From assembly GCA_965215895.1 (NCBI GenBank), contig CBDCEY010000008.1:995086-1059085 (forward strand): a stretch of DNA of 64,000 bases. The letters are read 5' to 3'. Origin of the DNA: Vicinamibacterales bacterium (GTDB lineage: Bacteria; Acidobacteriota; Vicinamibacteria; Vicinamibacterales; UBA8438). The position numbers were made by a program, and so were the translations under genes. How positions within the stretch are numbered: position 1 is the stretch's first letter; each line of letters starts with the position of its first letter. The notes beneath the pieces were generated by a model. That model had not been told where the DNA came from. It worked only from the letters and a program-made list of their open reading frames with translations, and did no database searches. Of this stretch, positions 7,650 through 26,737 are shown in pieces.

Positions 7650-7830
7650 TGCCGGCGCGCGGGGAGGTGCTCCGAGCCGCTGAAGCTGATCCGAACCGGC
7701 GCCGGCTCGTCGGTCGATGATACGGGCGCGCGAGGAGGCGGTCCGCCGATGCCGTGCGTCGCCTGCCGGCGGACGGTCACCTGCCGACGGTCGATGAGGT
7801 CGGCGCGCGAGGAGGCGCCCCGCCGGCGAC
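7641..7830 (+). repeat. three degenerate tandem units, each starting GGTCGATGA..GGCGCGCGAGGAGG
   Basis: GGTCGATGA occurs at 7641, 7712 and 7789 (spacing 71 and 77 bp). Each is followed by (C/G)GGCGCGCG(A/G)GGAGG. The paralogous spacer has one unit only (11037). Confidence 0.6.
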
Positions 7831-7989
7831 GAGCCGAGGGGCAGCGTCACTGCGGCGTTCGGCTGCATATCAGACGACATGCGCCCTCCTCACGCCTTGT
7901 GAGCCGGGCGCTTCGCGCCCGCCATGGGCTGCTGCTGCTGATAGAATCGCCGGCCTGCGCGCCGGACGAACTCGGAACCGGAGAGTCTG

Positions 7990-9000
7990 ATGCCGACGAA
8001 GCCGCTCGCGTTCGTGCTCGCCATCGCGTTCGCCGCGACCGCCGGCGCGCAGCAGGCCGCGTTCGATCGCCTGTCGCCCGACGTCCTCGACGCCGTGCCG
8101 CCGTCGGCGCGCGTCACGGGCGAGCCCGGCGCCATGACGATCCGACGGACGTCGTGCCGCACGGCGCCGATGAACGAGATCCGGCGGCGCATCGTCGACC
8201 TGGCGGTGCAGGAGTGGGCGTTCTTCGGGTTCATCGTCGTGGACCAGACGACCGTCGAGGCGTCCGGACCCGGCCAGCCTCGCCGGCGCCGTCGGCGGCG
8301 GCCGGGCCCGGCCGAGTCGGCCCGCGTGGCCGGCTCGATCGCCGGCTACTGGACGGTCACGCCGCAGGGCGGCTGGATCCTCGACGCCCAGAACGACGCT
8401 TGGCGCGGACCGCGCGGCGTCGGCTCGCGCTGGCGCTACCCGTGGTCGGCGGCCTTCGTGTCGTGGGTGATGTGCGAGGCCGGCCTCGGCGACGCCTCTC
8501 TCTTCCAGCGCGCCGTGGCCCATCACGTCTACATCGACCAGGCCATCCGTGCCCGCGGCGCCGACACGCCGGCGGCGGCGTTCACGGCCCACGACGTCGG
8601 CGAGGCGCCGGTCGCGCCGGGCGATCTGCTGTGCAGCGCGCGCCGGCCCGCCTACCGGTCGATCGCCCAGCGGCGGCGCCAGATGGGCGTCGGCGCCCGG
8701 ACCCACTGCGACGTCGTCGTGAAGGTGGAGCCGTCCCGCCGCCGCATTCTCGCCATCGGCGGCAACGTGCGCGGCGCGGTGAGCCTGAAGCTGCTCCCGG
8801 CGGCCGATGGACCCGACGGCAGTCTCCGGCCGCTCCCGGGCCGGCGGCGCATATTCGCCCACCTCAAGCTGCGCGCCCCGTCGATCGCGGTCGACGCGCT
8901 CGACCACACACCCACGATGCACGCGGTCCAGTGCGACGACTTTCCACTTCCGCTTCAGGCAGCCGCCGCTCGCCTCGCCGGTCGTGCCGCCAGATGCTGA
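7990..9000 (+). CDS. DUF2272-like secreted protein, paralogue 1
   Basis: GGAG RBS 6 nt upstream. Signal peptide LAIAFAATAGAQQ. Blocks EWAFFG, YPWSAAFVSWVMCEAG, HCDVVVKV..AIGGNVRGAVS match my recollection of DUF2272. Confidence 0.65.
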   Translation: MPTKPLAFVLAIAFAATAGAQQAAFDRLSPDVLDAVPPSARVTGEPGAMTIRRTSCRTAPMNEIRRRIVDLAVQEWAFFGFIVVDQTTVEASGPGQPRRRRRRRPGPAESARVAGSIAGYWTVTPQGGWILDAQNDAWRGPRGVGSRWRYPWSAAFVSWVMCEAGLGDASLFQRAVAHHVYIDQAIRARGADTPAAAFTAHDVGEAPVAPGDLLCSARRPAYRSIAQRRRQMGVGARTHCDVVVKVEPSRRRILAIGGNVRGAVSLKLLPAADGPDGSLRPLPGRRRIFAHLKLRAPSIAVDALDHTPTMHAVQCDDFPLPLQAAAARLAGRAARC

Positions 9001-9014
9001 ACCGAGCGTAACAG

Positions 9015-10277: not shown

Positions 10278-10307
10278 GACCATGTCCCGCTGGTAGGGTA
10301 TGCTCGG

Positions 10308-10656
10308 ATCCCGAGCGGGGTGACGTGATACGGCCGCGGGCCGTCGACCGTGGCCTCCGTCTCCGCGTCGCGCGCGAGCGAGACGGAGCTGCCTCCAGCA
10401 CGAGGGCGGCGGCCTGCCTTCGCTTCTCCGGCGTGATGAGGTTCAGGGTGCCCCTCTCGTCCTCGGCGCCCCACCGGCCCTAGTTCGTCAGCTCCTGCTT
10501 CCACCGCTCGACGTCCGCCTGCGCCACCCGCCGTCCGTCACCTGCCTGGTCCCGTTCCTGCTGGAAGCCCCGAGAGCCGACGGTTTGCGCGAACAGCACC
10601 AACGTGACGATGCCCGCCAGTGTGACGATGCCGGCCAGACTCTTGGTCGTCCCCAT
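10308..10656 (-). pseudogene. 5' fragment of a cyclase-family gene (paralogous to 26659-27699)
   Basis: Aligns by eye with 27355-27699, including the upstream leader to about 10725. TGG to TAG nonsense at 10480-10482 (LTN* versus LTNWGRWG). Truncated at about 10305. Confidence 0.8.
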
Positions 10657-10827
10657 CGGTCCTCTCCCAGGTATCGCCTTCGTCGTCGATCCGGCTCCGC
10701 GTCGAACCGGGCGCTGGCAGGCTGGCTTGATGTCGTCGATGGCAGAACCGAAGTCGCTCACCTGCCCTACCCAATGAGGCGCAGAATCCCGATGGTCAAC
10801 GTGGCCGTCGCAATCACGGCCCCGACC

Positions 10828-11036
10828 ATCCCGAGTACGTGCTGAACGAGGACGGGGACGGCTACGACAACGTCACGGGCCGCCGGCGGACGGAGCTCGA
10901 CGCCGCGCTCCCGGTCGGCATCTCGTTCTGGGCGGGGCCCGGCGACAAGCCGCTCGTCCTGCGCGTCGCGTCGGCCTACGAGGCGGCGACGAAGCATCGC
11001 CGCCCGCCGCCGGACTTCGGGCCTGTCGGTCGATGA
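10828..11036 (+). pseudogene. 3' fragment of amidase gene (copy of 7441-7649)
   Basis: Encodes YVLNEDGDGYDNVTGRRRTELDAALPVGISFWAGPGDKPLVLRVASAYEAATKHRRPPPDFGPVGR, near-identical to the amidase C-terminus. No upstream coding part. Confidence 0.85.
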
Positions 11037-11128
11037 TGCCGGCGCGCGAGGAGGTGCTCCGAGTGGGCTGCTGGTGATGATAGGATCGCCGGCCTCCGCG
11101 CCGGACGAACTCGGAATCGGAGAGTCTG

Positions 11129-12139
11129 ATGCCGACGAAGCCGCTCACGTTGGTGCTCGCCATCGCGTTCGCCGCGACCGTCGGCGCGCAGCAGGCCGCG
11201 CTCGACCGCCTGTCGCCCGACGTCCTCGACGCCGTGCCGCCGTCGGCGCGCGTCACGGGCGAGCCCGGCGCCATGACGATCCGACGGACGTCGTGCCGCA
11301 CGGCGCCGATGAACGAGATCCGGCGGCGCATCGTCGACTTGGCGGTGCAGGAGTGGGCGTTCTTCGGGTTCATCGTCGTGGACCAGACGACCGTCGAGGC
11401 GTCCGGACCCGGCCAGCCTCGCCGGCGCCGTCGGCGGCGGCCGGGCCCGGCCGAGTCGGCCCGCGTGGCCGGCTCGATCGCCGGCTACTGGACGGTCACG
11501 CCGCAGGGCGGCTGGATCCTCGACGCCCAGGACGACGCCTGGCGCGGGCCGCGCGGCGTCGCCTCGCGCTGGCGCTACCCGTGGTCGGCGGCCTTCGTGT
11601 CGTGGGTGATGTGCGAGGCCGGCCTCGGCGACGCCTCTCTCTTCCAGCGCGCCGTGGCCCATCACGTCTACATCGACCAGGCCATCCGTGCCCGCGGCGC
11701 CGACACGCCGGCCGCGGCGTTCGCGGCCTACGACGTCGGCGAGGCGCCGGTCGCACCTAGGGATCTGCTGTGCAGCGCGCGCCGACCCGCGTACCGGTCC
11801 ATCGCCGAGCGGCGGCGCCAGATGGGCGTCGGCGCCCGCACCCACTGCGACATCGTGGTGAAGGTGGATCCCTCCCGCCGCCGCATTCTCGCCATCGGCG
11901 GCAACGTGCGCGGCGCGGTGAGCCTGAAGCTGCTCCCGGCGGCCGATGGCCCCGACGGCAGTCTCCGCCCGCTCGCGGGCCGGCGGCGGATCTTCGCCCA
12001 CCTCAAGCTGCGCGCCCCGTCGATCGCGGCCGACGCATTGGACCACACGCCCACGATGCGCGCGGTCCGGTGCGACGACTTTCCGCTGCCGCCCCAGGCA
12101 GCCGCCGCCCGCCTCGCCGGCCGCGCCGCCCGCTGCTGA
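11129..12139 (+). CDS. DUF2272-like secreted protein, paralogue 2
   Basis: 336 aa, colinear with 7990-9000. By manual alignment 17 of 336 residues differ. Confidence 0.65.
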   Translation: MPTKPLTLVLAIAFAATVGAQQAALDRLSPDVLDAVPPSARVTGEPGAMTIRRTSCRTAPMNEIRRRIVDLAVQEWAFFGFIVVDQTTVEASGPGQPRRRRRRRPGPAESARVAGSIAGYWTVTPQGGWILDAQDDAWRGPRGVASRWRYPWSAAFVSWVMCEAGLGDASLFQRAVAHHVYIDQAIRARGADTPAAAFAAYDVGEAPVAPRDLLCSARRPAYRSIAERRRQMGVGARTHCDIVVKVDPSRRRILAIGGNVRGAVSLKLLPAADGPDGSLRPLAGRRRIFAHLKLRAPSIAADALDHTPTMRAVRCDDFPLPPQAAAARLAGRAARC

Positions 12140-12389
12140 ACCAAGTGCAAGCGTCGCGTCTCGAAAGACGCTGTACCCCGCGCCCTTGAGGACTTCGACG
12201 GCCAGAGCCTGCGCCGGGCGGTCGACGAGTTCGTCGTCGCGAACGTCGCTACGAGAGCCTGACCCCGAACTTCGTCTATCATGACGCCCGCGAGGACAAG
12301 GCCGGCGCTCGCCGGGCGGCCTTGCCGGGAGGGCGTCTGGATGTCCAGTTTCGCCTCCCGCGCCGCTGGATGAGGTACGAACGGACGTC

Positions 12390-15300
12390 ATGACCGTTGA
12401 CTCCAAGGGCCGCGAGCTCTTCATCGTCGACAACAGTGTCTCCGGCTGGACCGGGCTCCGGTACTTGGAGGAGTGGTCCGGCATCGCGAAGGCGTTCGAC
12501 ATCGCGACCGGATACTTCGAGATCGGCGCCCTGCTCTCCCTCGACGGCAAATGGCAGGGGCTCGACAAGATCCGGATCCTGATGGGCACGGAGATCACCC
12601 ATCGAACTCGGAAAGCCATTCTCGTAGCGGTTCGGGCGCAAGCGCTCGACAGGCTCGACGAAAGCATCGAGGACGACAAGGAGCCGAACCCCTTCCTGCA
12701 CGGGGTCCTGGCGATTCTCGCCGCGCTCCGCTCCGGGCAGATCGAATGCCGTGTCTACGACAAGGACAAGTTCCACGCCAAGGCCTACATCACCCATGCC
12801 AAGCTCGAGGTCGTCGGCGCTCAGGCGCTGGTGGGCTCCAGCAACTTCACGCGGCCGGGTCTGACGAAGAACATCGAACTGAACGTCCAGATCCAGAGCG
12901 CGCGCGAGGTCGCGCAGCTCCAGGAGTGGTTCGAGACCCACTGGAACGGCGCTAGCGAGGTCAGCGAGGCCGTCATCGAGACGATCTCGCGCCATACGCA
13001 CCTGTATTCGCCGTTCGACGTCTACGCGAAGGCCCTGCAGCAGTTCTTCCGGGGGCACGAGCTGACTGCGACCGAGTGGGACGAGAATCGGTCGCGCATG
13101 TTCCCGTACCTCGATCGCTATCAGAAGGAGGCGTACTGGGCGCTCATGAAGATCGCCCGGCAGCACGGCGGTGGGTTCCTCTGTGACGGCGTGGGTCTTG
13201 GCAAGACCTTCGTCGGTCTGATGCTGATAGAGCGGCTCATCCTTCACGAGGGCAAGCGCGTCGTGCTGTTCGCGCCGAAGGCGGCCAAGGAGGCCGTGTG
13301 GGAGCCCCACCTGCGTCGGTGGCTTCCGCACATCGGCGGCGTCGGGGGCGGCGCGGACTTCAGCAACCTGGCCGTCTTCAGCCACACCGACTTCGGACGC
13401 AAGGGGGACTTCCCGGAGCGCTTCCAACGCATTGCCGAACTCGCCGATGTCGTCGTCATCGATGAGGCGCACCACTTCCGCAATCCGGGCCGCCAGGGTG
13501 ACCCCGACCAGGGAATTGAACCGTCGCGCTACTACCGCCTGTTCGAGCTGCTCGACAACACGGAACGCCCCAAGACCCTGTTCATGCTGACGGCCACCCC
13601 GATCAACAACCGCCTGAGCGACTTCCGCCACATGACCGAGCTCTTCACGCGTCGCGACGAGGCCTACTTCGCGCGCACGATCGGCGTGAACAACCTGCGG
13701 GCGCACTTCAACCAGATGGAAAAGACGCTTCGCAGCCGTGTGGGGCAGGACGCGGCCGATGCCGCGGAGCACGTCACCGAGGTCCAGGAGATCCTCCTAA
13801 CCGACGAGATCTTCCGCCAGCTCGTCGTCCAGCGTAGCCGCGCGTACGCCCGCGAGAGCCAGACTCGGGAGTACGGCAAAGCAGCCGCTTTCCCCGAGCG
13901 GAAGGACCCGCAGGTGGCGGCGTACTCGATCCGCAAGACCTACGGGCGGATGCTCGAGCTGTTCGAGAAGGCCTTCGCGAAACAGAGCCCGCTCTTCACG
14001 CTCCCGATGTACTACCCCCTGCATTGGTACAGGGGGCCGAACCAGAACATCGACGCGTTCGAGGAGAACCGCCAGAAGCAGGTGGTCGGCTTGATCCGGA
14101 CCAACTACCTCAAGCGCTTCGAGAGCTCCGTCGCCGCCTTCGAGCTCTCCTGCGACCGCCTCCTCCAGAAGCTGCTCGCCTTCCTCCACGTTCACAGCGA
14201 GAGCGACGCCGAGAAGAAGCGCCTCGAGAGGTGGAAGGCTCAGAAAGCCGACGTCCTGGGCCACGTCTCCCACCGCCAGCTCGAGCTCTGGGGCGAGGAA
14301 GGCGAGGAGGCGGACGACGAAGACGTCGTTCCCCAGGAGATGCTCGACACGGTCGAGCGCCTCGACCGGGCCGAGTACGACGTCGAGGAGATGATGTCCG
14401 AGACCTTCCTCGACCTCGACCAGATCGTGGAGTTCCTGGACGAAGCCCGGAAGTTCGAGCCGAAGCACGACGACAAGCTCCAGAAGCTCATCCGCCTGCT
14501 CAAGTCGAAGGCGCTGGCCGACCAGAAGATCCTGATCTTCAGCGAGTTCGCCGACACGGCCCGCTACCTCAAGCGTCAACTGGACGAGGCCCGTATCGAG
14601 GGCATCGAGCAGGTGGACAGTGCCACGAAGAAGAACCGTGCAGACGTGATCCAGCGCTTCGCCCCCTATTACAACGGCCTCTCGTCCCCGGAGCTCGCCG
14701 AACATGGCCGCGAGGAAATCCGCGTCCTGATTTCTACCGATGTCCTCTCCGAGGGTCTCAACCTCCAGGACGCCTCGCGGATGATGAACTACGACATCCA
14801 CTGGAACCCGGTGCGCCTCATGCAGCGCATCGGCCGGGTGGACCGGCGCATGAGTCCCGAGATCGAGAAACGGATCGTCGCCGACAATCCCGAGGCGGCC
14901 GTCTCCCGCGGCAAGGTCTGGTTCTGGAACTTTCTCCCGCCCGAGGAGCTGAACGAGATCCTCACGCTCTACACGAAGGTCACGCAGAAGACGCTCCTGA
15001 TCTCCAAGACGCTCGGCATCGAGGGCAAGAAGCTCCTCACCCCGGAGGACGACTACGAGGCGCTGAAGGAATTTCACCACGCCTACGAGGGCACGCGCAC
15101 GTCCGTGGAGGACATGCACCTCGCGTATCAGGCGCTGCTCCAGGCCGACCCGGAGCTGGAGGCGCGCCTCGCTCGCTTCCCCGGCGCAATCTTCAGCGGG
15201 GGCAAGCGCCCGGCGAAGGGCGTGCGCGGTGTCTTCTTCTGCTACGCGCTTCCCGCCCTCGACAAGGAGAAGAACGATTTCACCGAGGAGGCCGGCACCA

Positions 15301-15539
15301 CCCGCTGGTACCTTTACGATCTCGACCGCGAGACCATCCTCCAAGAGCCGGGCGAGATCGTCGCGAGCAACCGCTCGAAGCCCGAGACGCCCCGGCGCTG
15401 CACCACGGAGGAGAAGACGCTCCTCGACATCCGCAAGCGGATCGAGAAGCACATCAAGAACGGCTACCTGAAGCGCGTGGATGCCCCGGTCGGCGTCAAG
15501 CCGCGGCTGCGCTGCTGGATGGAGTTGAACGAGGGCTGA
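12390..15539 (+). CDS. PLD-nuclease / SNF2-family helicase fusion protein (1049 aa)
   Basis: N-terminal single HKD motif KFHAKAYITH...LVGSSNFT (about 12768-12865). SNF2 core: DGVGLGKT (I), VVVIDEAHHFRN (II), LTATPINN (III), LISTDVLSEGLNLQD and HWNPVRLMQRIGRVDR (V/VI). Confidence 0.85.
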   Translation: MTVDSKGRELFIVDNSVSGWTGLRYLEEWSGIAKAFDIATGYFEIGALLSLDGKWQGLDKIRILMGTEITHRTRKAILVAVRAQALDRLDESIEDDKEPNPFLHGVLAILAALRSGQIECRVYDKDKFHAKAYITHAKLEVVGAQALVGSSNFTRPGLTKNIELNVQIQSAREVAQLQEWFETHWNGASEVSEAVIETISRHTHLYSPFDVYAKALQQFFRGHELTATEWDENRSRMFPYLDRYQKEAYWALMKIARQHGGGFLCDGVGLGKTFVGLMLIERLILHEGKRVVLFAPKAAKEAVWEPHLRRWLPHIGGVGGGADFSNLAVFSHTDFGRKGDFPERFQRIAELADVVVIDEAHHFRNPGRQGDPDQGIEPSRYYRLFELLDNTERPKTLFMLTATPINNRLSDFRHMTELFTRRDEAYFARTIGVNNLRAHFNQMEKTLRSRVGQDAADAAEHVTEVQEILLTDEIFRQLVVQRSRAYARESQTREYGKAAAFPERKDPQVAAYSIRKTYGRMLELFEKAFAKQSPLFTLPMYYPLHWYRGPNQNIDAFEENRQKQVVGLIRTNYLKRFESSVAAFELSCDRLLQKLLAFLHVHSESDAEKKRLERWKAQKADVLGHVSHRQLELWGEEGEEADDEDVVPQEMLDTVERLDRAEYDVEEMMSETFLDLDQIVEFLDEARKFEPKHDDKLQKLIRLLKSKALADQKILIFSEFADTARYLKRQLDEARIEGIEQVDSATKKNRADVIQRFAPYYNGLSSPELAEHGREEIRVLISTDVLSEGLNLQDASRMMNYDIHWNPVRLMQRIGRVDRRMSPEIEKRIVADNPEAAVSRGKVWFWNFLPPEELNEILTLYTKVTQKTLLISKTLGIEGKKLLTPEDDYEALKEFHHAYEGTRTSVEDMHLAYQALLQADPELEARLARFPGAIFSGGKRPAKGVRGVFFCYALPALDKEKNDFTEEAGTTRWYLYDLDRETILQEPGEIVASNRSKPETPRRCTTEEKTLLDIRKRIEKHIKNGYLKRVDAPVGVKPRLRCWMELNEG

Positions 15540-15543
15540 GCCG

Positions 15544-18543
15544 ATGCCGACCGACCACCGCGAAAGTCTCGCCCGCATCCGGAGCTTCCCCCAGCTCGTC
15601 GCCTACCTGCGCGACGAGCTCGCCTGGCCGATCGAGTCGGACGACTTTGAGGAGCTGACCTTCGAGTACGACCCGCAGGAGGAGCTCGGGATCGACCCGA
15701 AGAACGCGGCCAAGATCAAGCACATCAAGCGCCTGCGCCCGCTCGTGCCGGGCCAGCCCTGGGGCATCTTCTTCGTCAAGTTCGAGCCGAAGCGCCTGCC
15801 CGTGGTGGCGCTGCGCCGCATCCTGGGCCGGGTCGGGCTCAAGAAGCGCGCCTCCGCCAACAAGTCCGAGCGCCAAGCCTGGGCCGCCGACGACCTGCTC
15901 TTCGTGTCCAACTACGGCGAGGGCGAGGAGCGCCGCATCGCCTTCGCCCACTTCTCGAAGTCCCGGGACGGCCACGACCTGCCCACCCTCAAGGTGCTCG
16001 GCTGGGACAACCTCGACACGCCGCTCCACCTCGACGCCGTGGCCAGCGACCTGAGCGACCACCTCACTTGGCCCGAGGACGAGAACGACCCCGACGCCTG
16101 GCGCGAGCGCTGGCGCGCCGCGTTCACACTGCGCCACCGAGAGGTCATCAGCACCTCGAAGCAGCTCTCGGAGCGCCTGGCCGAGCTCGCCAGCGCGATC
16201 CGCGACCGCATCCGGACCGCACTCGCCATCGAGACCGAGACCGGCCAGCTCACCAAGCTCATGAAGGCGTTCCAGACCGCGCTCGTCCACGACCTGGACG
16301 AGACCGGCTTCGCCGACATGTACGCCCAGACCATCGCATACGGGCTGCTCTCGGCACGCATTACCGACCCCGAGCGGCGCACGGCTGACGACCTCGCCGC
16401 CCACATGCGAACGAACCCGTTCTTGAAGGAGCTGATGGAGACCTTCCTCCACGTGGGCGGGCGCCGCGGTAAGGCCGGCGGGCCAGGCATCGACTTCGAC
16501 GAGCTGGGCGTCTCCGACGTGGTGGAGCTACTCGACCAAACCAAGATGGAGAAGGTGGTCATCGACTTCGGCGACCGCAACCCCCAGGAAGACCCGGTCA
16601 TTCACTTCTACGAGCACTTCCTGGCCGCCTTCGACAAGAAGCAGAAGGTGAGCCGCGGCGTCTTTTATACCCCGCGTCCGGTGGTCTCCTACATCGTGCG
16701 CTCGCTGGACGAGCTCTTGCGCAGCGAGTTCGGCCTAACTGACGGCCTCGCGGACACCACCACCTGGGGCGAGATGGCGAAGCGCTATAAGGAACTGAAG
16801 ATCCCGGAGGGCACTCCCCTCGGGCAGGCCTTCGTTCAGATCCTCGACCCGGCCACCGGTACAGGCACCTTCCTGGTCGAGGTGATGGACCTCATCCACA
16901 AGACGATGGTCGAGAAGTGGAAGGCCCAGGGCCACGGCGAGCAGAAGATCCAGGCGCTCTGGAATGAGTATGTCCCGAAACACCTGCTGCCACGCCTGCA
17001 CGGGTACGAGCTCCTGATGGCCCCGTACGCCATCGCGCACCTCAAGATCGGCCTCAAGCTCTACGAGACCGGCTACGGCTTCGAGAGCGACGAGCGCGCG
17101 CGGGTGTACCTGACGAATGCGCTCGAGCCGCCGGGCGACGGGCAGCTCACGCTCGACTTCCTGCCGGCGCTCGCGCACGAGGCCGAGGCGGTTAACGAGA
17201 TCAAGCGGAAGCAGCGATTCACTGCCATTATTGGGAATCCACCGTATGCCAAGAGCTCATCCAACCGGTCGGATGTGGCCGAATCCCTTGTCTCAGAGTA
17301 CAAACGCCTAGTGTACGGAGAGACTAACGTACAACCGCTTTCCGACGACTATGTGAAGTTCGTTGCTTTCGCGTTCAAGGTTGCTGCCCCACACACAGCC
17401 GTTGTCGGATTGATTACCAACCGCTCCTATCTGGAAGGCCTGATCCACCGAGGTATGAGGTTCGTCCTCGGCCGGGATTGCTCGCGGATCCAAGTAATCG
17501 ACCTTCACGGGGACTCCAACGTGGGCGAGCGACCGCCGGAGGGAACAGCGAACGAGAACATCTTCGACATTCAGCAGGGCGTCGCGATCTCACTCTTCTT
17601 GCGATCACTGCCGCGACAACCACCCGTTAGCCTCGTGTTGCACAGACATCTTTGGGGCACTCGGCAGGAGAAATACGGTGCTCTGGCAGCTAGTGAGCTT
17701 CACACCGGGATGGGCGCTCTTCCCCTTTCGGAGCCGTACTGGTTCTTCGCTCCCAAAGATCTTGGGACACAGCACGAGCAAGTCTTGTGGGCCAGCGTTG
17801 ATTCGCTCTTCCACGTGAGCGGTATGGGAGTGAAGTCACGACGCGACCATTTCTTGCTTGACAAGAGCAAGACATCACTCCGTGCACGAATGTCCAAGCT
17901 GGCGCGCTGCGGAGACGCTGAGCGACTTCGGGATGACCTCCAGGTCAAAGACAACCCCCAGTGGTCCCTCGCCGCTATGCGTGACCTGCTCCAACGCGAG
18001 GGAGTCGATCGTCGCATCTTCCCCATCGCGTACCGGCCCTTTGACACCCGATTTGTCTGGTACCACCGAGAGGCGATCGAGAGGGGCGATGCGCGGTGGC
18101 CAGTGATGAAGCACGTTCTCTCGGAAGGCTTGTCGCTGCTTACAGCGCGTCAGTCGGCAAATCACGATTTCACTTCGGTCTTCGTTGCACGCGGGCTGTC
18201 GGAAATGAAGACTGCGGAGAGCACAAGGGGTTCGTATGTTTTCCCAGCTCGCAAGCGGGCCGATGTCGGGCGGTTCCAGGCGGGCGATGAGGTCTCGAAC
18301 ATCCGTAGGGCCACATTTGGGCCGCCGCTAGCAAGGCGTAAACCGGAAGAGCTCGTTGGCTACATCTACGCGATCCTCCACTCTCCTGAGTATCGGCGTC
18401 GATACGCAGGTGCGCTTCGCATTGAGTTCCCTCGGATTCCAACAGGCTGTGCGTGGTCGCTAGCGGATGAGCTTTGCCGACTCGGTTGGGAACTCGTTGC
18501 ACTGCATCTCATAGAGTCCCCTAAGGACACTGACGCAAATTAA
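15544..18543 (+). pseudogene. N6-adenine DNA methyltransferase with type-ISP-like specificity region, 5' part, truncated by IS insertion
   Basis: Starts 4 nt after the helicase stop. SAM motif ILDPATGTGTFL (about 16845-16875) and IIGNPPYA (about 17230-17250). The frame runs into the IS at 18526 and terminates 6 codons later at TAA 18541-18543. Confidence 0.85.
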
Positions 18544-19818
18544 CTTGCCATCTTTTGCGATCTGTGGTCTATTTGGGTTCTATGCAGCGCAACGTGGAAC
18601 TGGAGGCCACGATTGTCGCCAAGTACGCGGCGGTGTCGCCGGTATTGGATGAGCGCAGTCGCCGCCGGTGGGCGGCTGCCGAGTCTGTGGCCATCGGCTA
18701 TGGCGGGGATGCGCTGGTGTCGTCGGCCACGGGTCTGGCCCGGGAGACGCTCCGGAAGGGCCGCCGGGAAATCACGCAAGGCGGGACGCCGTCGGGTCGC
18801 ATACGACGCCCGGGAGCGGGGCGGCCCCGTCTCGAACAGAGGCAGCCTGGCCTCCTGGCCGCCCTGGAAGGGCTGGTGGATCCGCTGACGCGCGGCGACC
18901 CAACGTCTCCGCTGCGCTGGACATGCAAGAGTCGGGCGAAGCTCGCCTCGGGGCTGGCACAACAAGGGTGGCGAGTGAGTTCGACGACCGTCGGCCGGTT
19001 GCTACATCAACTGGGGTACCGGCTGCAATCGGCCCGTAAACGTCAGGAGGGGACCAGCCACCCGGACCGTAACGCGCAGTTCGAGCACATCAATGCGACC
19101 GCGGACTCGTTTCTGGCCGAGGGGCAGCCGGTGATCTCGGTCGACACGAAGAAGAAGGAGCTGGTCGGGAACTTCAAGAATGGCGGGCGGGAATGGCAGC
19201 CGAAGGGCACGCCGCCGGCGGTGCTGGTCCATGATTTCCCGACGGACGCGGAGGGCAAGGCGATTCCGTATGGCGTCTACGACATGGCGCGCAACGAAGC
19301 TTGGGTGAGCGTGGGACGGGACCACGACACCCCGGCCTTCGCGGTGGCGTCAATTCGTCATTGGTGGCAGCAAATGGGCTGTGACGCCTACCCCGACGCC
19401 ACGGCCCTGTTCATCACGGCGGATGCGGGTGGGAGCAACGGGTATCGGTTGCGCGCCTGGAAGCACGAGCTTCAACAGTTGGCCGACGAGACCAGGCTGA
19501 CCATCCACGTGAGTCACTTTCCACCCGGCACCAGCAAATGGAACAAGATCGAGCACCGTCTCTTCTGTCACATCACGGCGAACTGGCGAGGCACCCCGTT
19601 GACGACGTATGAGACCATCGTCGACCGCATCGGGAACACCCGGACGGAGACCGGGCTCTGGGTCCGGGCCGAACTCAACGCCGGCCAGTATCCCACGGGC
19701 GTCAGGGTGACCAAGGAGGAGATGGACGCAATCGCGCTGGTCCGCGACGGGTTTCATGGGGAATGGAATTACAAACTGCTACCCCGATGAAGTTGGCAAG
19801 TTTATATCGATCACTGTC
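18526..19818 (+). mobile_element. ISAzo13-family insertion sequence (~1.29 kb)
   Basis: Imperfect terminal inverted repeats GACACTGACGCAAATTAACTTGCCA / TGGCAAGTTTATATCGATCACTGTC (21 of 28 positions match). Flanking direct repeat CTAAG at 18521-18525 and 19819-19823 (TAA core if the ends are drawn 1 nt differently). Single transposase ORF. Confidence 0.85.
18582..19790 (+). CDS. ISAzo13-family (Rhodopirellula-type DDE) transposase
   Basis: LDERSRRRWAAAESVAIGYGG N-terminus, ISVDTKKKELVGNFKNGGREW, ITADAGGSNG, HFPPGTSKWNKIEHRLF, FHGEWNY tail. Alternative start 18555. Confidence 0.8.
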   Translation: MQRNVELEATIVAKYAAVSPVLDERSRRRWAAAESVAIGYGGDALVSSATGLARETLRKGRREITQGGTPSGRIRRPGAGRPRLEQRQPGLLAALEGLVDPLTRGDPTSPLRWTCKSRAKLASGLAQQGWRVSSTTVGRLLHQLGYRLQSARKRQEGTSHPDRNAQFEHINATADSFLAEGQPVISVDTKKKELVGNFKNGGREWQPKGTPPAVLVHDFPTDAEGKAIPYGVYDMARNEAWVSVGRDHDTPAFAVASIRHWWQQMGCDAYPDATALFITADAGGSNGYRLRAWKHELQQLADETRLTIHVSHFPPGTSKWNKIEHRLFCHITANWRGTPLTTYETIVDRIGNTRTETGLWVRAELNAGQYPTGVRVTKEEMDAIALVRDGFHGEWNYKLLPR

Positions 19819-19823
19819 CTAAG

Positions 19824-20282
19824 CTACCACGCTTCATCACCACGTATGCCGGCCCCCGGAACCCAGAAGTTGGCCGCGTTGGCTGGTCGGATGGCACCGT
19901 GTGGCTCGACGCCGGCAAGACCAGCGCCCGCGAGGGCCACCGTGCGACCAAGCCCGGCACCATCGGCTTCCACGGCGTGCCCGACGCGGTCTGGGACTTC
20001 CACGTCGGCGGCTACCAGGTCTGCTACAAGTGGCTCAAGGATCGGAAGGGCCGCACGCTCTCGAACAAGGACATCGCCCACTACCAGAAGATCGTCATCG
20101 CCGTGAACGAGACCATCCGCATCATGGCCGAGATCGACGAGGTCATCGAAGCCCACGGCGGTTGGCCCGGCGCGTTCCACACGGCGTCGGGGCCCGCCGA
20201 GAAGCGTCCGGCCCTCTTGAGGGTGGCCGAGTCATCGCCGCCATACGACGCAGGCAAGGGCGGACAAAAGCGCGACCTCTAA
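19824..20282 (+). pseudogene. 3' part of the IS-split methyltransferase (152 codons)
   Basis: Joining 18525 to 19824 restores one frame: ..LHLIESPK|LPRFITTYAGP..GFHGVPDAVWDFHVGGYQVCYKWLKDRKGRTLS..HYQKIV. This is the conserved C-terminal block of type ISP / Eco57I-like enzymes. Confidence 0.85.
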
Positions 20283-20489: not shown

Positions 20490-22769
20490 ATGGTTGACCC
20501 CAGGTATTCTGCGAGTCTGAGCCAGACCCAAGGCCGGTTGGGCTTCTCGGTCATCTTCCGGCACCCGGCGAGGCGGGACGATGCGAGCGGCAAGCCGGGC
20601 GTCCGGGTCCGGCGCGGCCTCGGCACGCGGGACGAGGCGGAGGCCGAGCGGCTCCGGGACGAGCTGAACGTTCTTCTGGGCGACCCTGAGTATCACGATC
20701 CGGCCGCGCGGGCCGAGGCCGAGCGGCGATTCGATCCCCGCGTCGTCGATATTTTCTTCGACAAGATGGTGCCCGAGGAGACCGACTTCGCGGCGCTGCG
20801 CGAGGCCGTCATTGCGCTGCCCGAGTCGGGACCGGACGGGTACCGGCGGGTGTTCTTCCTTGGGACGACGGGTGCCGGGAAGACGACGCTCGTCCGCCAG
20901 TTGATCGGGACGGATCCCCTGAAGGAGCGCTTCCCCTCGACCTCGACGGCGAAGACGACCATCCACGACACCGAGATCGTCCTCGCGGAGGGCGACTGGC
21001 GAGCGGTGGTGACCTTCGCCTCGAGCGACGAGGTGCGCGAGCACCTGAACGAGTGCATCTCGGCCGCGGCGCTCGCCGCGGCCAAGGGGGCCGACGACGC
21101 CGACGTGCTCCGGCGCCTGCTCAACCACGTCAATCAACGTTTCCGCTTCAACTACGTGCTCGGAAACGGCCCGACCGTCGCCCCGCGCAGCTCGGACTTC
21201 GACGATGACGAGGAAGAATCGGAGGGCGAGCTGGATCTTCTTTCCGAGGAGGAGGGTGATGCCATCGACGCGGCGAGCACGGCGGAGATGCTCGCCCGGA
21301 CGGTGGAGAAGCTGCGGGAGCTCGCTCGCCGCCTCGGTGACAAGCTGCGCGGCGAGCTCGAAGCCAGTGGGGACGACGACGAGCGCGTGGCCGAGGAGCT
21401 CTTCGAGGAGGAGCTGGACAATCTGTTGCGGGACGACGAGGGGTTCCACCAGGTGGCCGATGCACTGATGGAGGCGATCGAGAAGCGCTTCGACCTGCTG
21501 CCGCCCGCAGAGGTCCAGAAGACGCGGCAGAGCTGGCCTCTGACGTGGAGCGGAGAGTGGCCGGTCGAGAAGCGCGCCGCGTTTCTCCGCGCGATCTCTC
21601 GCTTCTCCAGCAACTACGCGCCTCACTTCGGGCGGCTGCTGACGCCCCTCGTGAACGGCGTGCGGGTTGCCGGGCCCTTCACACCGACCTGGAACGGAGG
21701 CGAGGTTCCTAAGCTCGTTCTCCTCGACGGCGAAGGGCTCGGCCACACGCCCAAGTCGTCCTCGGCAGTCTCGACGGCAGTGAGCCGCCGCATCGAGGCC
21801 ACGGATGCGGTGATCCTCGTGGACAGCGCCACCCAGCCGATGCAGGCGGCGCCGCTCGCCGCCATACGGGAGGTCGTGGCGACCGGGAATGCCCGCAAGC
21901 TCATCATCGGCTTCACGCACTTCGACGAGGTCAAAGGCGACAACCTGCCGAACGCCTCGGCGAAGGTGCAGCACGTTCTCGCCTCAGCCGAGAACGTGCT
22001 CGCGGCCTTCGGAGAGGAGCTCGGGCCGTACGCCGAGCGCGCGTTGCGCCAGCGCCTGGAGAGCGCCCGCTTCTTCTTCGCGGGCATCCACGAGCCGCTG
22101 AGCGAGGCCACCGTCTCGGAAAGGCGGACGATCTCGCAGATCCGCAAGCTCCTCGATGCAATCGATGCGGTGATCGAGCGGCCCGAGCCCACGGAGGCGC
22201 GCCCCGTCTACGACAGGATGAACCTCGTGCTCGCAATCCGCGCCGCGGCCGACGGCTTCCACGAGGCATGGCGACCGCGCCTGGGCCTCGAGTTCAAGCC
22301 CGGTTTCGCGAAAGAGCACTGGACGCGTGTAAAGGCCCTGAGTCGCCGTCTCGCCACAGGACGGGCCGACGAGTACGACACGCTCCGGCCGATCGCCGAC
22401 CTGCGCAAGGAGCTGGTGGAGCGGATCTACGTGTTCGTCCAGAACCCCCTGCGCTGGAAGGGGCCCGAGCCGGCGGACAGCCAAAAGCAGGAGTGCTTCA
22501 ACGTCTTCGCGGACAACCTCAGCCGGCGCATGCTAGAGGTGTGCACTCGCAGGTTGCGGCACGAACACGTAGCGCAGTGGCAGCATGCGTACGACAGGCA
22601 CGGAACCGGCTCGACGTTCGTGCGCGCCCGGATCATCGGCGACCAGATCTACGAGCCGGCGGCGCCCGTTCCCGACGTCACGCCCTCCCCCGACCGCAAC
22701 GAGTTCCTGCGCCAGGTCATCACCGAGGTGGGGAAGGCAGCCGAGGAGACGGGCTCCGTGCTCGAGTAG
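20490..22769 (+). CDS. GTPase-like P-loop NTPase with long acidic/helical insertion (759 aa), function unknown
   Basis: GGAGG lies 7 nt before ATG 20490 (track start 20409 sits inside the promoter). Walker A GTTGAGKTT (20862-20888), STAKTT, acidic run DFDDDEEESEGELDLLSEEEGD, then LVLLDGEGLGH and IIGFTHFDEV (G3/G4-like). Confidence 0.7.
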   Translation: MVDPRYSASLSQTQGRLGFSVIFRHPARRDDASGKPGVRVRRGLGTRDEAEAERLRDELNVLLGDPEYHDPAARAEAERRFDPRVVDIFFDKMVPEETDFAALREAVIALPESGPDGYRRVFFLGTTGAGKTTLVRQLIGTDPLKERFPSTSTAKTTIHDTEIVLAEGDWRAVVTFASSDEVREHLNECISAAALAAAKGADDADVLRRLLNHVNQRFRFNYVLGNGPTVAPRSSDFDDDEEESEGELDLLSEEEGDAIDAASTAEMLARTVEKLRELARRLGDKLRGELEASGDDDERVAEELFEEELDNLLRDDEGFHQVADALMEAIEKRFDLLPPAEVQKTRQSWPLTWSGEWPVEKRAAFLRAISRFSSNYAPHFGRLLTPLVNGVRVAGPFTPTWNGGEVPKLVLLDGEGLGHTPKSSSAVSTAVSRRIEATDAVILVDSATQPMQAAPLAAIREVVATGNARKLIIGFTHFDEVKGDNLPNASAKVQHVLASAENVLAAFGEELGPYAERALRQRLESARFFFAGIHEPLSEATVSERRTISQIRKLLDAIDAVIERPEPTEARPVYDRMNLVLAIRAAADGFHEAWRPRLGLEFKPGFAKEHWTRVKALSRRLATGRADEYDTLRPIADLRKELVERIYVFVQNPLRWKGPEPADSQKQECFNVFADNLSRRMLEVCTRRLRHEHVAQWQHAYDRHGTGSTFVRARIIGDQIYEPAAPVPDVTPSPDRNEFLRQVITEVGKAAEETGSVLE

Positions 22770-22786: not shown

Positions 22787-25700
22787 ATGAGTGCCATTTC
22801 TGCCGGTGCCCGCCGCTTGCCGCTTCACCACGTCACCATCCGCGTCCCCTGGCACGACGGAGGCTGGACGGGAAGTGTCTGCACCCGCCCGCTCGACAAC
22901 TCGAGTTGCCTAATCCTGCCCCGCATCGGCGAGGGCCGGCGCGACGAAGTAGAAGCGCGTTGCGCCAGCCGGCGGCTCGACGAGCTCGACCGCGCCGATC
23001 TTCCGCCCTGTGTCGGCGAGCGCGTCTCGTTCATGGCGCCCTTCGCGCTCCCGCGGACAATGACGCACCCGTACACGGAGTTCTACCCCGAGACCTACGG
23101 CCACTTCGCACCCACCCGCTTCGTGCAGCCGGCGTACTCCGCGGCATGCATCCCCTACCGATGGATGCTGCGCGAGAAGGTCGAGGGGAGCACGAAGGAT
23201 GGTGAGATCGGGATCGCCGAGCGTCTGAAGATCGGCTGGGTGCCGGACCGCGAGCCCGACATCCGCAATCACCAGGGCAAGGAGGTCGAGACAGCCTGGA
23301 TCCAGGAACGCGAGAACCAGCTCGCGCTGCTCGACACCTTCTTCGGCGCGCTCCGGCCGGTGGAGTCGCTCTGCTTCTTCTATGCCAAGCGCACCCCGCT
23401 CTCCGAGCAGTCCCGGCGCGTGATCGTCGGCGTGGGCCGCGTGCTTTCCGTGGGGGAGGCCACCGAGTACGCATACAAGGTCGAGGGCCCGCCCCTGCGC
23501 TGCGTGCTCTGGGAGCACAACGTGGGCCACTCGGTACGGCCCGGCTCCGCGGACGGTTTCCTCTTTCCCTACCAGGAGGCGCTGGCCCTCGCCGAGCGCG
23601 AGGCGGTCGACCCCGAGGAGTTCGTGACCTTCGCTCCTGACGAGCACTTCGACGCCTACTCTTACGGCTCTGAGCTCCTGACCCACGATGGCGCCGTGGC
23701 CTCCCTCGTGGCCTGCGCGGGGACGCTGCACCGGATCCGCAGCCGGATCGAGGGACCGTGGGACCAGGCGCTCGCCTGGATCGACACGCAGCTCAACCGG
23801 CTCTGGAAGGCGCGTGGTGCGTTCCCCGGCCTGGGATCGGCGCTCTCGGCATTCGGCTACGAGTGGGGCTTCCAGCACGGAAGCCTGCTCGCCTACGAGA
23901 TCGAGCTGCTGCGCGAGCGCGAGGGCGGCGGTGATCCGTGGGCGCTCGTGGACGCCGTGATGAATGATCCCGCGCGGCTCGGCGGGCCCGTGGCGAAGCT
24001 CCTCACGGACGGACTGCGCAGGGGCTGGAAGCGCCTCGCCGACGATAGGCGAGCCCTGCTCCAGCTCCTCGGCCGCTGCGCCGTCTCGGAGGATCAGGCG
24101 CTCCGCATGTACGACACCACGGCGCGGGCGAAGGCCGGTATCGAGGCGAGCGACGCCGAGCTGCTGCGCAATCCGTACCTCCTCTTCGAGCGCGACCGAC
24201 GCGCCGCCGACCCCATCGCCTTCGGCGCGGTGGACCGGGGCCTGTTCCCGGACGAAGCGGTGCGGAAGCAGTTCCCCTTGCCGGAGCCGAGCCGCATCGA
24301 AGACCCGGCCCATGAACGGCGCGTGCGCGCACTGGTCGCGGACCTCCTGGGGCACGCGGCGGCCGAGGGGCACACGCTGCTGCCCCGGAGCTGGGTCATC
24401 CGCAGAGCGCGGGAGCACGCGCTCCAGCCGCCGTGCCCGCTCGGCGAGAACGTGCTCGACGCCTGCGAGGAGAGCTTCGATCCGGTCATTGCGCGTGTCG
24501 CGACACGCGCGGGCGAGCCCGCCTACCAGTTGGAGCGGCTCGTCGAGTGCCGCAAGATCATCCGTCGCGAGGTGCTCGGCCGGAAGAAGGGGAAGCCGCA
24601 CGCGGCCGATCTCGACTGGCGTGGGCTCGTGGACGCGGGGCTCGATGCGCCGCTGCCCAAGGATCCGGAGGAGCGCGAGCTGGAGGAGCGCGCGCGGCGC
24701 GAGAAGGCGGCGGCGCTCGAGCGGCTCTTCCGCTCGCGGCTCTCCGTGTTGATTGGCGCGGCCGGGACGGGCAAGACGACGCTGCTGCGGATGCTCTGCT
24801 CGCTTCCCGGCCTCGCCGAGAAGGGGCTGCTGCTCCTCGCACCCACGGGCAAGGCCCGCGTGCGCCTGGAAGAGCAAACCCGCATGCGGGGTGCCGGCCA
24901 GACACTGGCGCAGTTTCTCATCCGGCAGCAGCGCTACGACGGCGAGACCGGCGCCTACTTTCCCAAGCCCAGGGCGCCCCGCTGTGGCGACTACCGGACC
25001 GTGATCGTGGACGAGTGCTCGATGCTGACCGAAGAACAACTCCCGGCGCTGATCGACTCGCTCAGCAACGTCGAGCGACTCGTGCTCGTCGGGGACCCGC
25101 GCCAGCTCCCGCCGATCGGGGCCGGTCGCCCGTTCGTGGACATCGTTCGAGAGCTCGAGCCGGAGAAAGTCGAGACGCTCTTTCCGCGCTGCGGGCCGGG
25201 CTATGCCGAGCTCACAATTCCGCGACGCCAGCAGGGCGAGGCCCGGGCCGACGTGCTCCTGGCATCGCACTTCAGCGGACGGCCGCTCGATCCTGGCGCA
25301 GACGCCGTGCTGGACGAGGGTGAGGAAGAAATGGACGGACGACTCCGGCTCGTGCGATGGAACCACCCGCAGGAGCTTCAGGAGAAGCTCGTCGCGGAGC
25401 TGGTCGAGGCGCTCGGGCTCTCCGGACCGGACGACGAACTGGGCTTCGAGGAATCGCTGGGCGGCACGCGTTACCGGGACATCCCGTGGGCCTTCTTCAG
25501 GAACCGGTTCGGGGACAACCCAGGAACCGCCGCCCGGGCCGAAGCATGGCAGATGCTCTCGCCCGTGCGCGCTGGGCTCGTGGGGGTGGACGCGCTGAAC
25601 CGCATGCTCCAGACGCAGTTCCGGGCGAAGGCGCGCGAGCTTGCCGAGACGGAGGGCTGGGGCCGCAAGGTGCCGCGTCCCGTCGGCCGGCAGATGCTCC

Positions 25701-26737
25701 TCTACGGCGACAAGGTCATCAACGTCATCAACCAGCGCCGGCGCGATGTCTGGCCGAAGCCCGATGGGGAGGCCTATATCGCCAACGGCGACATCGGCAT
25801 CGTCGTCGGGCAGTACAAGACGAAGAAGTTCAAGGGCCTGCCGTGGAAGCTAGAGGTCGAGTTCGCAGGGCAGCTGGGCCCCAAGTACGGGTTCTACCCC
25901 GGCGAGTTCGGAGACGAAGGCCGCAACCCGCTCGAGCTGGCCTACTGCCTGACGGTGCACAAGACCCAGGGCAGCGAGTTCGGCGTCACCTTTGTCGTGC
26001 TCACCAACCCCTGCTGGCTGCTGTCCCGCGAGCTCTTGTACACGGCGCTGACCCGCCACCAGAACCGGCTGGTCATCCTGCACGAGGGCCCGCTTGTCCA
26101 GTATCGCGGCTATGGAGGCGACGACCACTCGGAGATCGCGCGGCGCATGACCAACCTCTTTGCGGACCCGCTGCCGCGCGAGGTAACGGTGAACGCCAAG
26201 CAACGCTTCCTCGAGGAAGGCCTCATTCATCGAACCGAGCGCGGTGACCTCGTCCGCTCGAAGTCCGAGCTGGTGCTTGCCGACAAGCTACACGCCCGCG
26301 GGATCGACTACGCCTACGAGCAGCCTCTCGTGCTGCCCAATGGTCGCACCCGCTACCCGGATTTCACGATCGCGGATCACGCGCGGGGCGTAACCTTCTA
26401 CTGGGAGCATCTCGGCATGCTCGACGACCCGGGGTACAGAGCCCGATGGGAGCGGAAGCGTGCCGAGTACCTGGAGTGCGGAATCGGGCCTCACGAGGAC
26501 GGCGGAGGCCCGGAAGGAACGCTGATTGAGACCCGCGACGAACCGGGCGGGCGGCTGGATGCAGCGACGATCGCATCGGTGATCGACGGAGTGATCCTGG
26601 GCTGGCACATGGACCTTCACGCGGGCACGGTGGTTGGGAGCCAGACAACCCCGATGAATCAGAACGTGGCGATTGGATTGATCGGCGACCCGGTGCCCCG
26701 CGTGGGCAACGGCGCCGCGGTCAGCAGAAACTCGTAG
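22787..26737 (+). CDS. large SF1 (RecD/AAA_30-like) helicase with unknown N-terminal half and C-terminal endonuclease-like domain (1316 aa)
   Basis: GGGGAG RBS, ATG 22787, 18 nt after the upstream stop. N-terminal block VPWHDGGWTGSVCTRPLDNSSCLILPRI. Helicase motifs GAAGTGKTT (24755-24781), VIVDECSML, LVLVGDPRQLPPIG, TVHKTQGSEF. Tail SKSE..YEQP..RYPDF..YWEHLG (about 26250-26470). Confidence 0.75.
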   Translation: MSAISAGARRLPLHHVTIRVPWHDGGWTGSVCTRPLDNSSCLILPRIGEGRRDEVEARCASRRLDELDRADLPPCVGERVSFMAPFALPRTMTHPYTEFYPETYGHFAPTRFVQPAYSAACIPYRWMLREKVEGSTKDGEIGIAERLKIGWVPDREPDIRNHQGKEVETAWIQERENQLALLDTFFGALRPVESLCFFYAKRTPLSEQSRRVIVGVGRVLSVGEATEYAYKVEGPPLRCVLWEHNVGHSVRPGSADGFLFPYQEALALAEREAVDPEEFVTFAPDEHFDAYSYGSELLTHDGAVASLVACAGTLHRIRSRIEGPWDQALAWIDTQLNRLWKARGAFPGLGSALSAFGYEWGFQHGSLLAYEIELLREREGGGDPWALVDAVMNDPARLGGPVAKLLTDGLRRGWKRLADDRRALLQLLGRCAVSEDQALRMYDTTARAKAGIEASDAELLRNPYLLFERDRRAADPIAFGAVDRGLFPDEAVRKQFPLPEPSRIEDPAHERRVRALVADLLGHAAAEGHTLLPRSWVIRRAREHALQPPCPLGENVLDACEESFDPVIARVATRAGEPAYQLERLVECRKIIRREVLGRKKGKPHAADLDWRGLVDAGLDAPLPKDPEERELEERARREKAAALERLFRSRLSVLIGAAGTGKTTLLRMLCSLPGLAEKGLLLLAPTGKARVRLEEQTRMRGAGQTLAQFLIRQQRYDGETGAYFPKPRAPRCGDYRTVIVDECSMLTEEQLPALIDSLSNVERLVLVGDPRQLPPIGAGRPFVDIVRELEPEKVETLFPRCGPGYAELTIPRRQQGEARADVLLASHFSGRPLDPGADAVLDEGEEEMDGRLRLVRWNHPQELQEKLVAELVEALGLSGPDDELGFEESLGGTRYRDIPWAFFRNRFGDNPGTAARAEAWQMLSPVRAGLVGVDALNRMLQTQFRAKARELAETEGWGRKVPRPVGRQMLLYGDKVINVINQRRRDVWPKPDGEAYIANGDIGIVVGQYKTKKFKGLPWKLEVEFAGQLGPKYGFYPGEFGDEGRNPLELAYCLTVHKTQGSEFGVTFVVLTNPCWLLSRELLYTALTRHQNRLVILHEGPLVQYRGYGGDDHSEIARRMTNLFADPLPREVTVNAKQRFLEEGLIHRTERGDLVRSKSELVLADKLHARGIDYAYEQPLVLPNGRTRYPDFTIADHARGVTFYWEHLGMLDDPGYRARWERKRAEYLECGIGPHEDGGGPEGTLIETRDEPGGRLDAATIASVIDGVILGWHMDLHAGTVVGSQTTPMNQNVAIGLIGDPVPRVGNGAAVSRNS

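Follow-up and report, generated by a model that had tools for sequence, protein, structure and literature searches.

An ISAzo13-family insertion sequence splits the methyltransferase gene of a putative Type ISP-like defence operon in a Vicinamibacterales bacterium

A 64,000-nucleotide stretch of the genome of a Vicinamibacterales bacterium, an acidobacterium of soil, was analysed (contig CBDCEY010000008.1, positions 995,086 to 1,059,085; the whole stretch is called the window, and coordinates refer to it unless stated otherwise). In the window, a gene for a DNA methyltransferase (methylase) with a target recognition domain (TRD) is interrupted by an insertion sequence (IS) of the ISAzo13 family, which occupies positions 18525 to 19819 on the forward strand. 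IS insertion in a gene of restriction-modification (R-M) type is an ordinary kind of event. The following explanation of the locus appears probable to us as a whole. A currently active IS of 1295 bp would have transposed recently into a TAA triplet of the methylase gene, leaving a 999-amino-acid product without its final 152 residues, where the recognition domain is most conserved. The truncated subunit would have lost proper DNA recognition and methylation, and the partner protein, a PLD-SNF2 helicase-nuclease without a recognition module of its own, would have lost restriction together with modification. Knockout of the methylase would be tolerated rather than suicidal, carrying no autoimmune risk, and the locus would be a dispensable defence island that is hit repeatedly.

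The 5' fragment of the interrupted gene (15544 to 18543, forward strand) consists of 994 native codons, five codons supplied by the IS (DTDAN) and a stop codon, and it encodes N6_Mtase, Eco57I and Type_ISP_C domains. Its 999-amino-acid product is found in this interrupted form in a public protein collection (protein P0001). The 3' fragment (19824 to 20282, forward strand) contains 152 codons and a stop, and encodes the conserved tail of Type_ISP_C with an invariant W and the motifs GGYQ and KWLKDRKGR. In silico joining of 15544 to 18525 with 19824 to 20282 yielded a single open reading frame (ORF) of 1146 codons, in which LHLIESPK is followed directly by LPRFITTYAGP. Intact homologues read LHL[IM]ESP[KR]L..FITTY across this junction, with no insertion or deletion, and in an intact gene of 86% identity (locus L083) the sequence GAG TCC CCT AAG CT is exactly that of the reconstructed empty site. 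More distant homologues have CCG AAG at the junction, so that the TAA target is absent there. An earlier note on this DNA, made from the letters alone, had described a precise split of the methylase and restoration of one 1146-codon frame upon removal of the IS, and had named alignment to intact homologues as the comparison that could refute this; the conserved sequence was found to be reconstituted, both at the protein level and in the DNA of L083.

Neither half of the gene has decayed, as the same note had maintained. Of 220 columns without variation among 50 homologues, the repaired protein keeps 219; the single change is Y to F, and left-out control homologues scored the same on these columns. 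Homologues are abundant: 7993 of 8000 scored candidates had E<=1e-30. Two truncated homologues (P0021 and P0030) were considered as possible parallels and rejected, since one is frameshifted and the other truncated at the N-terminus, and neither has an IS insertion at the junction site. About a quarter of the 120 best homologues (P0003, P0006, P0007, P0019, P0028 and others) carry an extra C-terminal Peptidase_S24 (LexA-like) domain, which is lacking in the methylase of the window; in one source such a homologue is annotated as 'SOS-response repressor LexA'.

The repaired protein has the N6_Mtase and Eco57I methylase motifs (DPATGTGTF, NPPY), and Type_ISP_C (PF18135) matches its residues 755-1096 with E=1.4e-66 and 225 bits; a literature search on PF18135 found nothing. 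By sequence as well as by fold, the nearest solved structures are DrdV (7lo5), LlaBIII (4xqk) and LlaGI (5ffj). The break, which follows residue 994, lies inside Type_ISP_C and corresponds in the alignment to about residue 902 of DrdV, whose TRD spans residues 636-1029 (bioRxiv 10.1101/2021.01.06.425610) and contacts bases through residues N673 to K807. The 152 residues that are lost make up the most conserved stretch of the C-terminal half, and the invariant residues named above are among the many they contain. In an AlphaFold model of the full-length protein, built from 50 homologues and otherwise poor (mean predicted local distance difference test score, pLDDT, 59.7), this tail is a confidently predicted sub-domain with pLDDT 80-93.

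The element itself has one ORF, a full-length DDE transposase of 402 amino acids (18582 to 19790, forward strand), between a left terminal inverted repeat, GGACACTGACGCAAATTAACTTGCCATCT (18525 to 18553, forward strand), and a right one (19791 to 19819, forward strand). The repeats start with GGAC, the ends of the element are GG...CC, and the two repeats match at 22 of 29 positions. The transposase scored 575.1 bits (cut-off 200) against the NCBIfam equivalog transpos_ISAzo13 (NF033519), over profile positions 2-387 of 387, and 463.7 bits (cut-off 26.9; E=3e-139) against Pfam PF07592 (DDE_Tnp_ISAZ013), which bears out the family assignment of the earlier note. The note had also reported a CTAAG at both flanks (18521-18525 and 19819-19823), inverted repeats matching at 21 of 28 positions and a single transposase ORF, all of which were found where it had placed them. 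Its boundaries, a 1293-bp element with a 5-bp CTAAG target site duplication (TSD), had to be revised.

The revision rests on other copies of the same IS. The exact 402-amino-acid transposase is encoded on 11 contigs, and nine other loci encoding it were fetched, which gave ten DNA copies, eight complete and two cut by the end of the locus. The copies are 99.9-100% identical to the window IS over exactly 1295 bp, from GGACACTGACGC to CACTGTCC, where similarity ends. Seven of the eight complete copies are flanked by matching triplets, TAA/TAA or TTA/TTA. Taken together, these copies place the element at 18525-19819 between two copies of a 3-bp TSD, TAA (18522 to 18524 and 19820 to 19822). In CTAAG, the outer C belongs to the IS as its last base and the outer G as its first, so CTAAG is no 5-bp TSD; it is the preferred C-TWA-G context with the terminal G and C of the IS counted in. 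Of the earlier claim that repeats and duplication are shared with other copies, the identical termini (eight of eight) and the TAA or TTA flanks (seven of eight) stood, and the 5-bp version failed. A 5-bp TSD is ruled out by identical copies in t-TAA-c, g-TAA-c and g-TTA-g contexts; in L086 the context is t-TAA-c, and in L012 it is g-TAA-c, with g-TAA-g at one flank and c-TAA-c at the opposite flank. A 2-bp TA duplication of the IS630 type was likewise rejected, as it would require differences in the ends of the same IS that are correlated from copy to copy. The ends and the TSD are not due to chance, the ends being identical in every copy. Correction of the boundaries leaves the restoration of the reading frame unaffected.

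No terminator-like site was found inside the IS, and a promoter-like site lies upstream of gene 3, the next gene of the island; the downstream genes need not be silenced by the insertion. The orphaned methylase tail continues the frame of the transposase ORF, from which it is separated only by the TGA of the transposase (19788-19826); this is probably coincidence, with a chance of one in three. Identical copies of the IS are also present on two small circular contigs that may be plasmids, L086 (79,652 bp) and L089 (65,415 bp), the latter carrying two copies 1.7 kb apart, which suggests that the element moves between replicons.

In the wider family, 80 loci with ISAzo13-family elements from Vicinamibacterales, other Acidobacteriota, Planctomycetota, Proteobacteria and others were examined, and the ends were resolved by script in 48 copies. 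All 48 had T(A/T)A on both sides, and 44 had the same triplet on both sides (TAA in 23, TTA in 21). Among these 44, termini were GG..CC in 33, the -1 base was C in 28 and the +1 base was G in 24, against a background of 0.31. The target of the family is strictly T(A/T)A, with a 3-bp duplication and a preference for C-TWA-G; a statement of this target, of the 3-bp TSD or of the preference was not found in the searchable literature on ISAzo13 target sites. In approximately 10-15% of the family copies TTA is found on one side and TAA, its reverse complement, on the other (L091, L015, L017, L018, L023, L029, L065, L069 and L074), which could be due to copies recombining with each other or to some peculiarity in how the central base is repaired. 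The result is a clean target description from many copies (about 60) for a poorly studied family, of modest value. In the window, such sites are scarce: CTAAG and CTTAG together occur four times in the repaired 62.7-kb sequence, whereas about 29.5 and 27.5 are expected from base composition, a further sign that the flanking CTAAG is not due to chance. The 6.6-kb two-gene operon has no C-TWA-G besides the interrupted site. No remnant of a second IS was found at the other CTTAG (10211).

Evidence on the age of the insertion came from a sister genome, a circular contig of 7.86 Mb (L001; ENA ERZ25766727) whose flanks are 99.1-99.8% identical to the window. Its methylase (P0002) stops after the same ESPK and has a different tail. 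Three ISAzo13-family elements are stacked there in tandem at one TAA: after CCCC and TAA comes a 1912-bp element (IS-B, a second ISAzo13-family element with two ORFs), then TAA, IS-B again, TAA, the window IS in inverted orientation, and TAA followed by GCTACC. This copy of the window IS is 99.6% identical to that in the window (5 differences in 1295) and sits at the same TAA in the opposite orientation. The whole element can be oriented by its left and right repeats, which are distinguished by 7 of 29 positions. Its inversion cannot come from recombination within the repeats; it means either at least two insertions at the same triplet or an excision followed by reinsertion. At least one insertion is younger than the split between the window and L001, which have diverged by less than 1%. 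The insertion is recent, as the earlier note had held: identical copies of the IS are present on other contigs, and the copy at the same site of L001 is in the opposite orientation.

Alternatively, one ancestral insertion, later rearranged, could be present in both genomes, in which case the event would be older and the site would not have been hit independently. No uninterrupted allele of at least 99% identity was found in the databases searched, and the IS copies differ by 0.4% (5 of 1295), similar to the 0.2-0.3% divergence of the flanks, both of which would fit such a history. It is nevertheless rather unlikely, because the whole element, including its distinguishable repeats, is inverted with the TAA flanks kept in both genomes, which repeat recombination cannot bring about, and because an ancestral insertion would still need excision and reinsertion, itself a new event. 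Far less probable is that the IS junctions arose in assembly or stem from a minority variant in a mixed population. In favour of this are a source that has the look of a metagenome assembly and the many copies of the identical IS (11 contigs), as multi-copy repeats can mislead assemblers; on the other side, both junctions carry the TAA duplication typical of the family, removal of the IS restores a perfectly conserved ORF, and the same site is occupied in an independently assembled genome.

The divergence between the window and L001 is uneven, reaching about 1.5% towards the 3' end of the PLD-SNF2 gene (25 synonymous and 13 non-synonymous differences) against 0.2-0.3% elsewhere, and all 11 differences in the methylase fall within 16045-16084. 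This pattern (12958-16084) looks like recombination tracts rather than uniform drift. A comparison of synonymous and non-synonymous changes with L001 was abandoned, since the differences are too few and too patchy for use.

Directly upstream of the methylase, and ending 4 bp before its start, lies the intact gene of the partner, a PLD(HKD)-SNF2 helicase-nuclease of 1049 amino acids (12390 to 15539, forward strand) with PLDc_2, ResIII, SNF2-rel_dom and Helicase_C domains. Its match in PADLOC is C3a139 'HKD+Snf2' (7e-56). The nuclease domain is of the PLD/HKD kind (PLDc_2, RE_NgoFVII) and not an Mrr-like PD-(D/E)xK domain, and no recognition domain is recognisable in the protein. The motifs GLGKT, DEAH and HAK..GSSN are all kept, and the window copy is full length and 88-92% identical to orthologues that stand next to intact methylases. 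Unique changes at columns that are invariant in the other sequences number 10, the range in controls being 0-18. Relaxed constraint or compensatory inactivation of this gene was rejected, as there is no excess of substitutions and the motifs are intact. In L001 the same gene is dead: it contains a 2434-bp Tn5-like IS with an 8-9-bp duplication at about 12949-12957 and, in addition, a 1-bp frameshift at 13796 (both in window coordinates). The transposase of this Tn5-like element (L001 5034-7370; 778 amino acids) has an N-terminal DruA domain (PF14236, E=3e-26) followed by Tnp_DNA_bind, DDE_Tnp_1 and Dimer_Tnp_Tn5.

Judged by gene order, the pairing of the two genes is conserved. A PLD-SNF2 gene of 1046-1049 codons is located 4-7 bp upstream of the methylase in the window, L083, L084/L085, L095 and L096; L001 has a disrupted version of it there. 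It is directly upstream in six of the seven loci for which upstream DNA was available, the exception being L082, where an orphan methylase lies in an IS-rich region. Restriction by Type I, Type III and Type ISP systems does not occur without the methylase or specificity module. Taking into account that PLD-SNF2 has no specificity domain and is consistently adjacent to the methylase-TRD gene, we infer that restriction by PLD-SNF2 would need the methylase-TRD subunit. The earlier note had warned that losing the tail of the methylase while the partner stays intact would be hazardous. The lost tail belongs to the TRD of a Type ISP/DrdV-like methylase-TRD module and the partner has no recognisable recognition domain; this hazard is probably moot, and of the three explanations that the note had offered, dependence of the nuclease arm on the methylase subunit would fit best.

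Another of the three held that the truncated 994-residue enzyme still binds and methylates DNA, so that the genome is protected while the intact PLD-SNF2 arm is active. DPATGTGTF, NPPY and the TRD segment aligned with the base contacts of DrdV all lie upstream of the break, and the 5' ORF is undecayed. On the other hand, with the missing 152 residues the protein has lost about 100 positions of the Type_ISP_C profile together with the densest invariant cluster of the C-terminal half, these residues form the compact, confidently predicted sub-domain described above, and the destruction of PLD-SNF2 in the sister genome is what would be expected of a dead system. Since no other stretch of the C-terminal half is as conserved as the part removed, continued methylation is disfavoured, and we regard it as improbable.

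Several points nonetheless weigh against the explanation that we prefer, knockout of the methylase with restriction lost alongside modification. As the base-contacting residues of DrdV (N673 to K807) align upstream of the break, the 994-residue fragment might, by this alignment, keep some recognition. The N-terminal 360 residues of the methylase are modelled at pLDDT below 50 and have no assigned fold; they could have a role as a nuclease, a coupler or a partner-binding region. (No Pfam or NCBIfam match was found in residues 1-340, and the homologues, at 84-91% identity in a second alignment, are too similar to help in modelling the N-terminus.) The dependence of PLD-SNF2 on the methylase is drawn from analogy and conserved synteny only. 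Both database alleles of at least 99% identity are interrupted, and this exact gene was not found anywhere with an empty site; a search of JGI metagenomes with the empty-site sequence GAGTCCCCTAAGCTACCACGCTTC gave no match. Finally, the sequence is probably a metagenome-assembled consensus, and some members of the population could lack the IS.

Damage by IS elements is frequent at this system. In L085 (8695-13725) an IS3-family element lies inside gene 3, in L095 (13024-17313) a truncated gene 3 adjoins an IS630-type (DDE_3) transposase, and the orphan methylase of L082, without a partner gene, is surrounded by IS240, Transposase_mut and IS3 elements; with the window and L001, five of the eight sampled loci have IS damage. 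The remaining explanation of the earlier note is that the insertion is a selected off-switch: silencing of a costly or self-toxic defence would be advantageous, and IS insertions in the gene would be repeatedly favoured in the population. The damage to some component in five of eight loci would fit, as would the fact that in two 99%-identical genomes one TAA is occupied by the same IS, oriented oppositely, which points to at least two separate insertion events. However, target preference can by itself account for reuse of the site. The sole C-TWA-G in 6.6 kb, and one of four in 62.7 kb, was used, and the terminal G and C of the IS would be expected to rebuild C-TAA-G at both junctions after insertion at such a site; with these two circumstances, reuse is unsurprising. 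Moreover, defence islands, being dispensable, gather IS elements neutrally, and precise excision is unlikely with a 3-bp duplication, which makes the event a loss and not a reversible switch. An off-switch is compatible with a nuclease that needs the methylase, and it is inseparable from target preference combined with neutral decay of a dispensable island; we consider it unlikely, with a chance that is still appreciable.

The pile-up in L001 leads to a further idea, which we put forward tentatively and think more likely wrong than right by a wide measure: the C-TAA-G in the methylase-TRD tail may be a self-renewing landing pad and a recurrent route by which a split Type ISP-like defence is silenced in parallel in soil Vicinamibacterales. 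Since the elements end in C and start with G, each insertion would rebuild the preferred C-TAA-G on both sides and would invite pile-ups such as the three tandem elements. The system silenced in this way would be a widespread, uncharacterised combination of PLD-SNF2, methylase-TRD and a swappable third gene of P-loop or reverse transcriptase type. Apart from this idea, the five damaged loci and the repeated insertions at one triplet show the speed with which such islands are switched off in IS-rich soil bacteria. The window also offers a genotype, made by nature, in which the methylase is broken and the nuclease intact; should it be viable, dependence of the PLD-SNF2 arm on the methylase-TRD subunit would have to follow. 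Knockout of an R-M gene by an IS is a textbook event, and what is added here, the target of the family, the stacked insertions of L001 and a genotype that predicts the wiring of the system, is of modest value.

The slot after the methylase is variable. In the window it is filled by gene 3 (20490 to 22769, forward strand), a P-loop protein of 759 amino acids that is 86% identical to gene 3 of L096 (12687-14966) and is also present in L001. In L083 (8521-12303), L084 (13549-17313) and L095 (13024-16188) the slot holds a protein of 1054-1260 amino acids containing a reverse transcriptase, unrelated to the P-loop protein. L095 and L096 have the two versions of gene 3 at the same chromosomal locus (PhoX ... 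Glyco_hydro_3). As far as gene order tells, the conserved operon is made up of a predicted PLD-SNF2 motor-nuclease, then the methylase-TRD gene, which encodes its only methylase, then a variable third gene, and it looks like a Type ISP R-M enzyme divided into separate polypeptides. In some loci a RecD-like helicase follows gene 3. In the window this is a superfamily 1 helicase (22787 to 26737, forward strand) that matches the PADLOC candidate PDC-S68 almost end to end (1517 bits) and shares 92% identity with its positional counterpart in L084; a literature search on PDC-S68 found nothing. It may be part of the methylase system or a neighbouring single-gene defence.

On either side of the defence island (about 12.3-26.7 kb) lies one copy of a diverged direct repeat, 10307-10704 and 27349-27746, with 90-93% identity between the two, the first being a fragment of the cyclase-domain gene at 26659-27948 (reverse strand). 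A block with a DUF2272 gene, 7438-9003, is duplicated at 10825-12142 with 93-96% identity. The G+C content is 0.60-0.65 between 12.5 and 20.5 kb, compared with 0.69-0.74 in the flanks. The repeats and the low G+C content suggest horizontal acquisition beside a segmental duplication.

Compared with known elements, the IS fits the ISAzo13 family best. Members of this family have a single ORF, a length of approximately 1.25-2.2 kb and inverted repeats beginning with G-G/A. The window IS shares the single DDE transposase, the length of about 1.3 kb, the imperfect repeats starting with GG and the short AT-rich duplication, and it is a new member of the family from Vicinamibacterales. IS630/Tc1-mariner elements resemble it in a weak transposase similarity (NF033545, 57 bits, below the cut-off of 100) and in a TA-centred target, but they duplicate 2 bp (TA) and not the 3 bp (TAA/TTA) found here; with the score below cut-off and a different TSD length, membership was rejected.

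Among defence systems, DISARM class 1 (DrmD SNF2, DrmC PLD, DrmMI) likewise combines PLD, SNF2 and N6-adenine methylase functions. It was rejected, as there is no DrmA or DrmB (DUF1998) among the genes of the island and the matches to DrmD, DrmC and DrmMI are far below cut-off (135 bits vs 610). MANTIS/Gao_RL, BREX-related systems, Hma and MADS were dismissed because of mismatches in gene content or score. The insertion has its closest parallel in IS and mutational knockouts of specificity or methylase genes of Type I and Type III R-M systems, in which restriction is lost too and the loss is tolerated; that dependence is established by experiment there, whereas for the split system here we infer it. 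The Type IIL enzymes DrdV and MmeI have a homologous methylase-TRD (7lo5, E=5e-27), and the alignment runs through the lost tail. They are, however, single polypeptides that act on their own, carry an N-terminal PD-ExK nuclease and lack an ATPase, whereas here a conserved PLD-SNF2 ATPase partner stands upstream and no N-terminal nuclease domain was recognised in the methylase. LlaGI and LlaBIII, which are Type ISP enzymes, share the homologous methylase with the Type_ISP_C module (PF18135, 225 bits; Foldseek E=4.5e-27) and the association of a superfamily 2 ATPase and a nuclease with a methylase-TRD. They differ in that the motor-nuclease is here a separate ORF of 1049 amino acids, which departs from the single polypeptide that defines Type ISP, and in that the nuclease is PLD/HKD instead of Mrr-like, the motor is of SNF2 type and a variable third gene follows.

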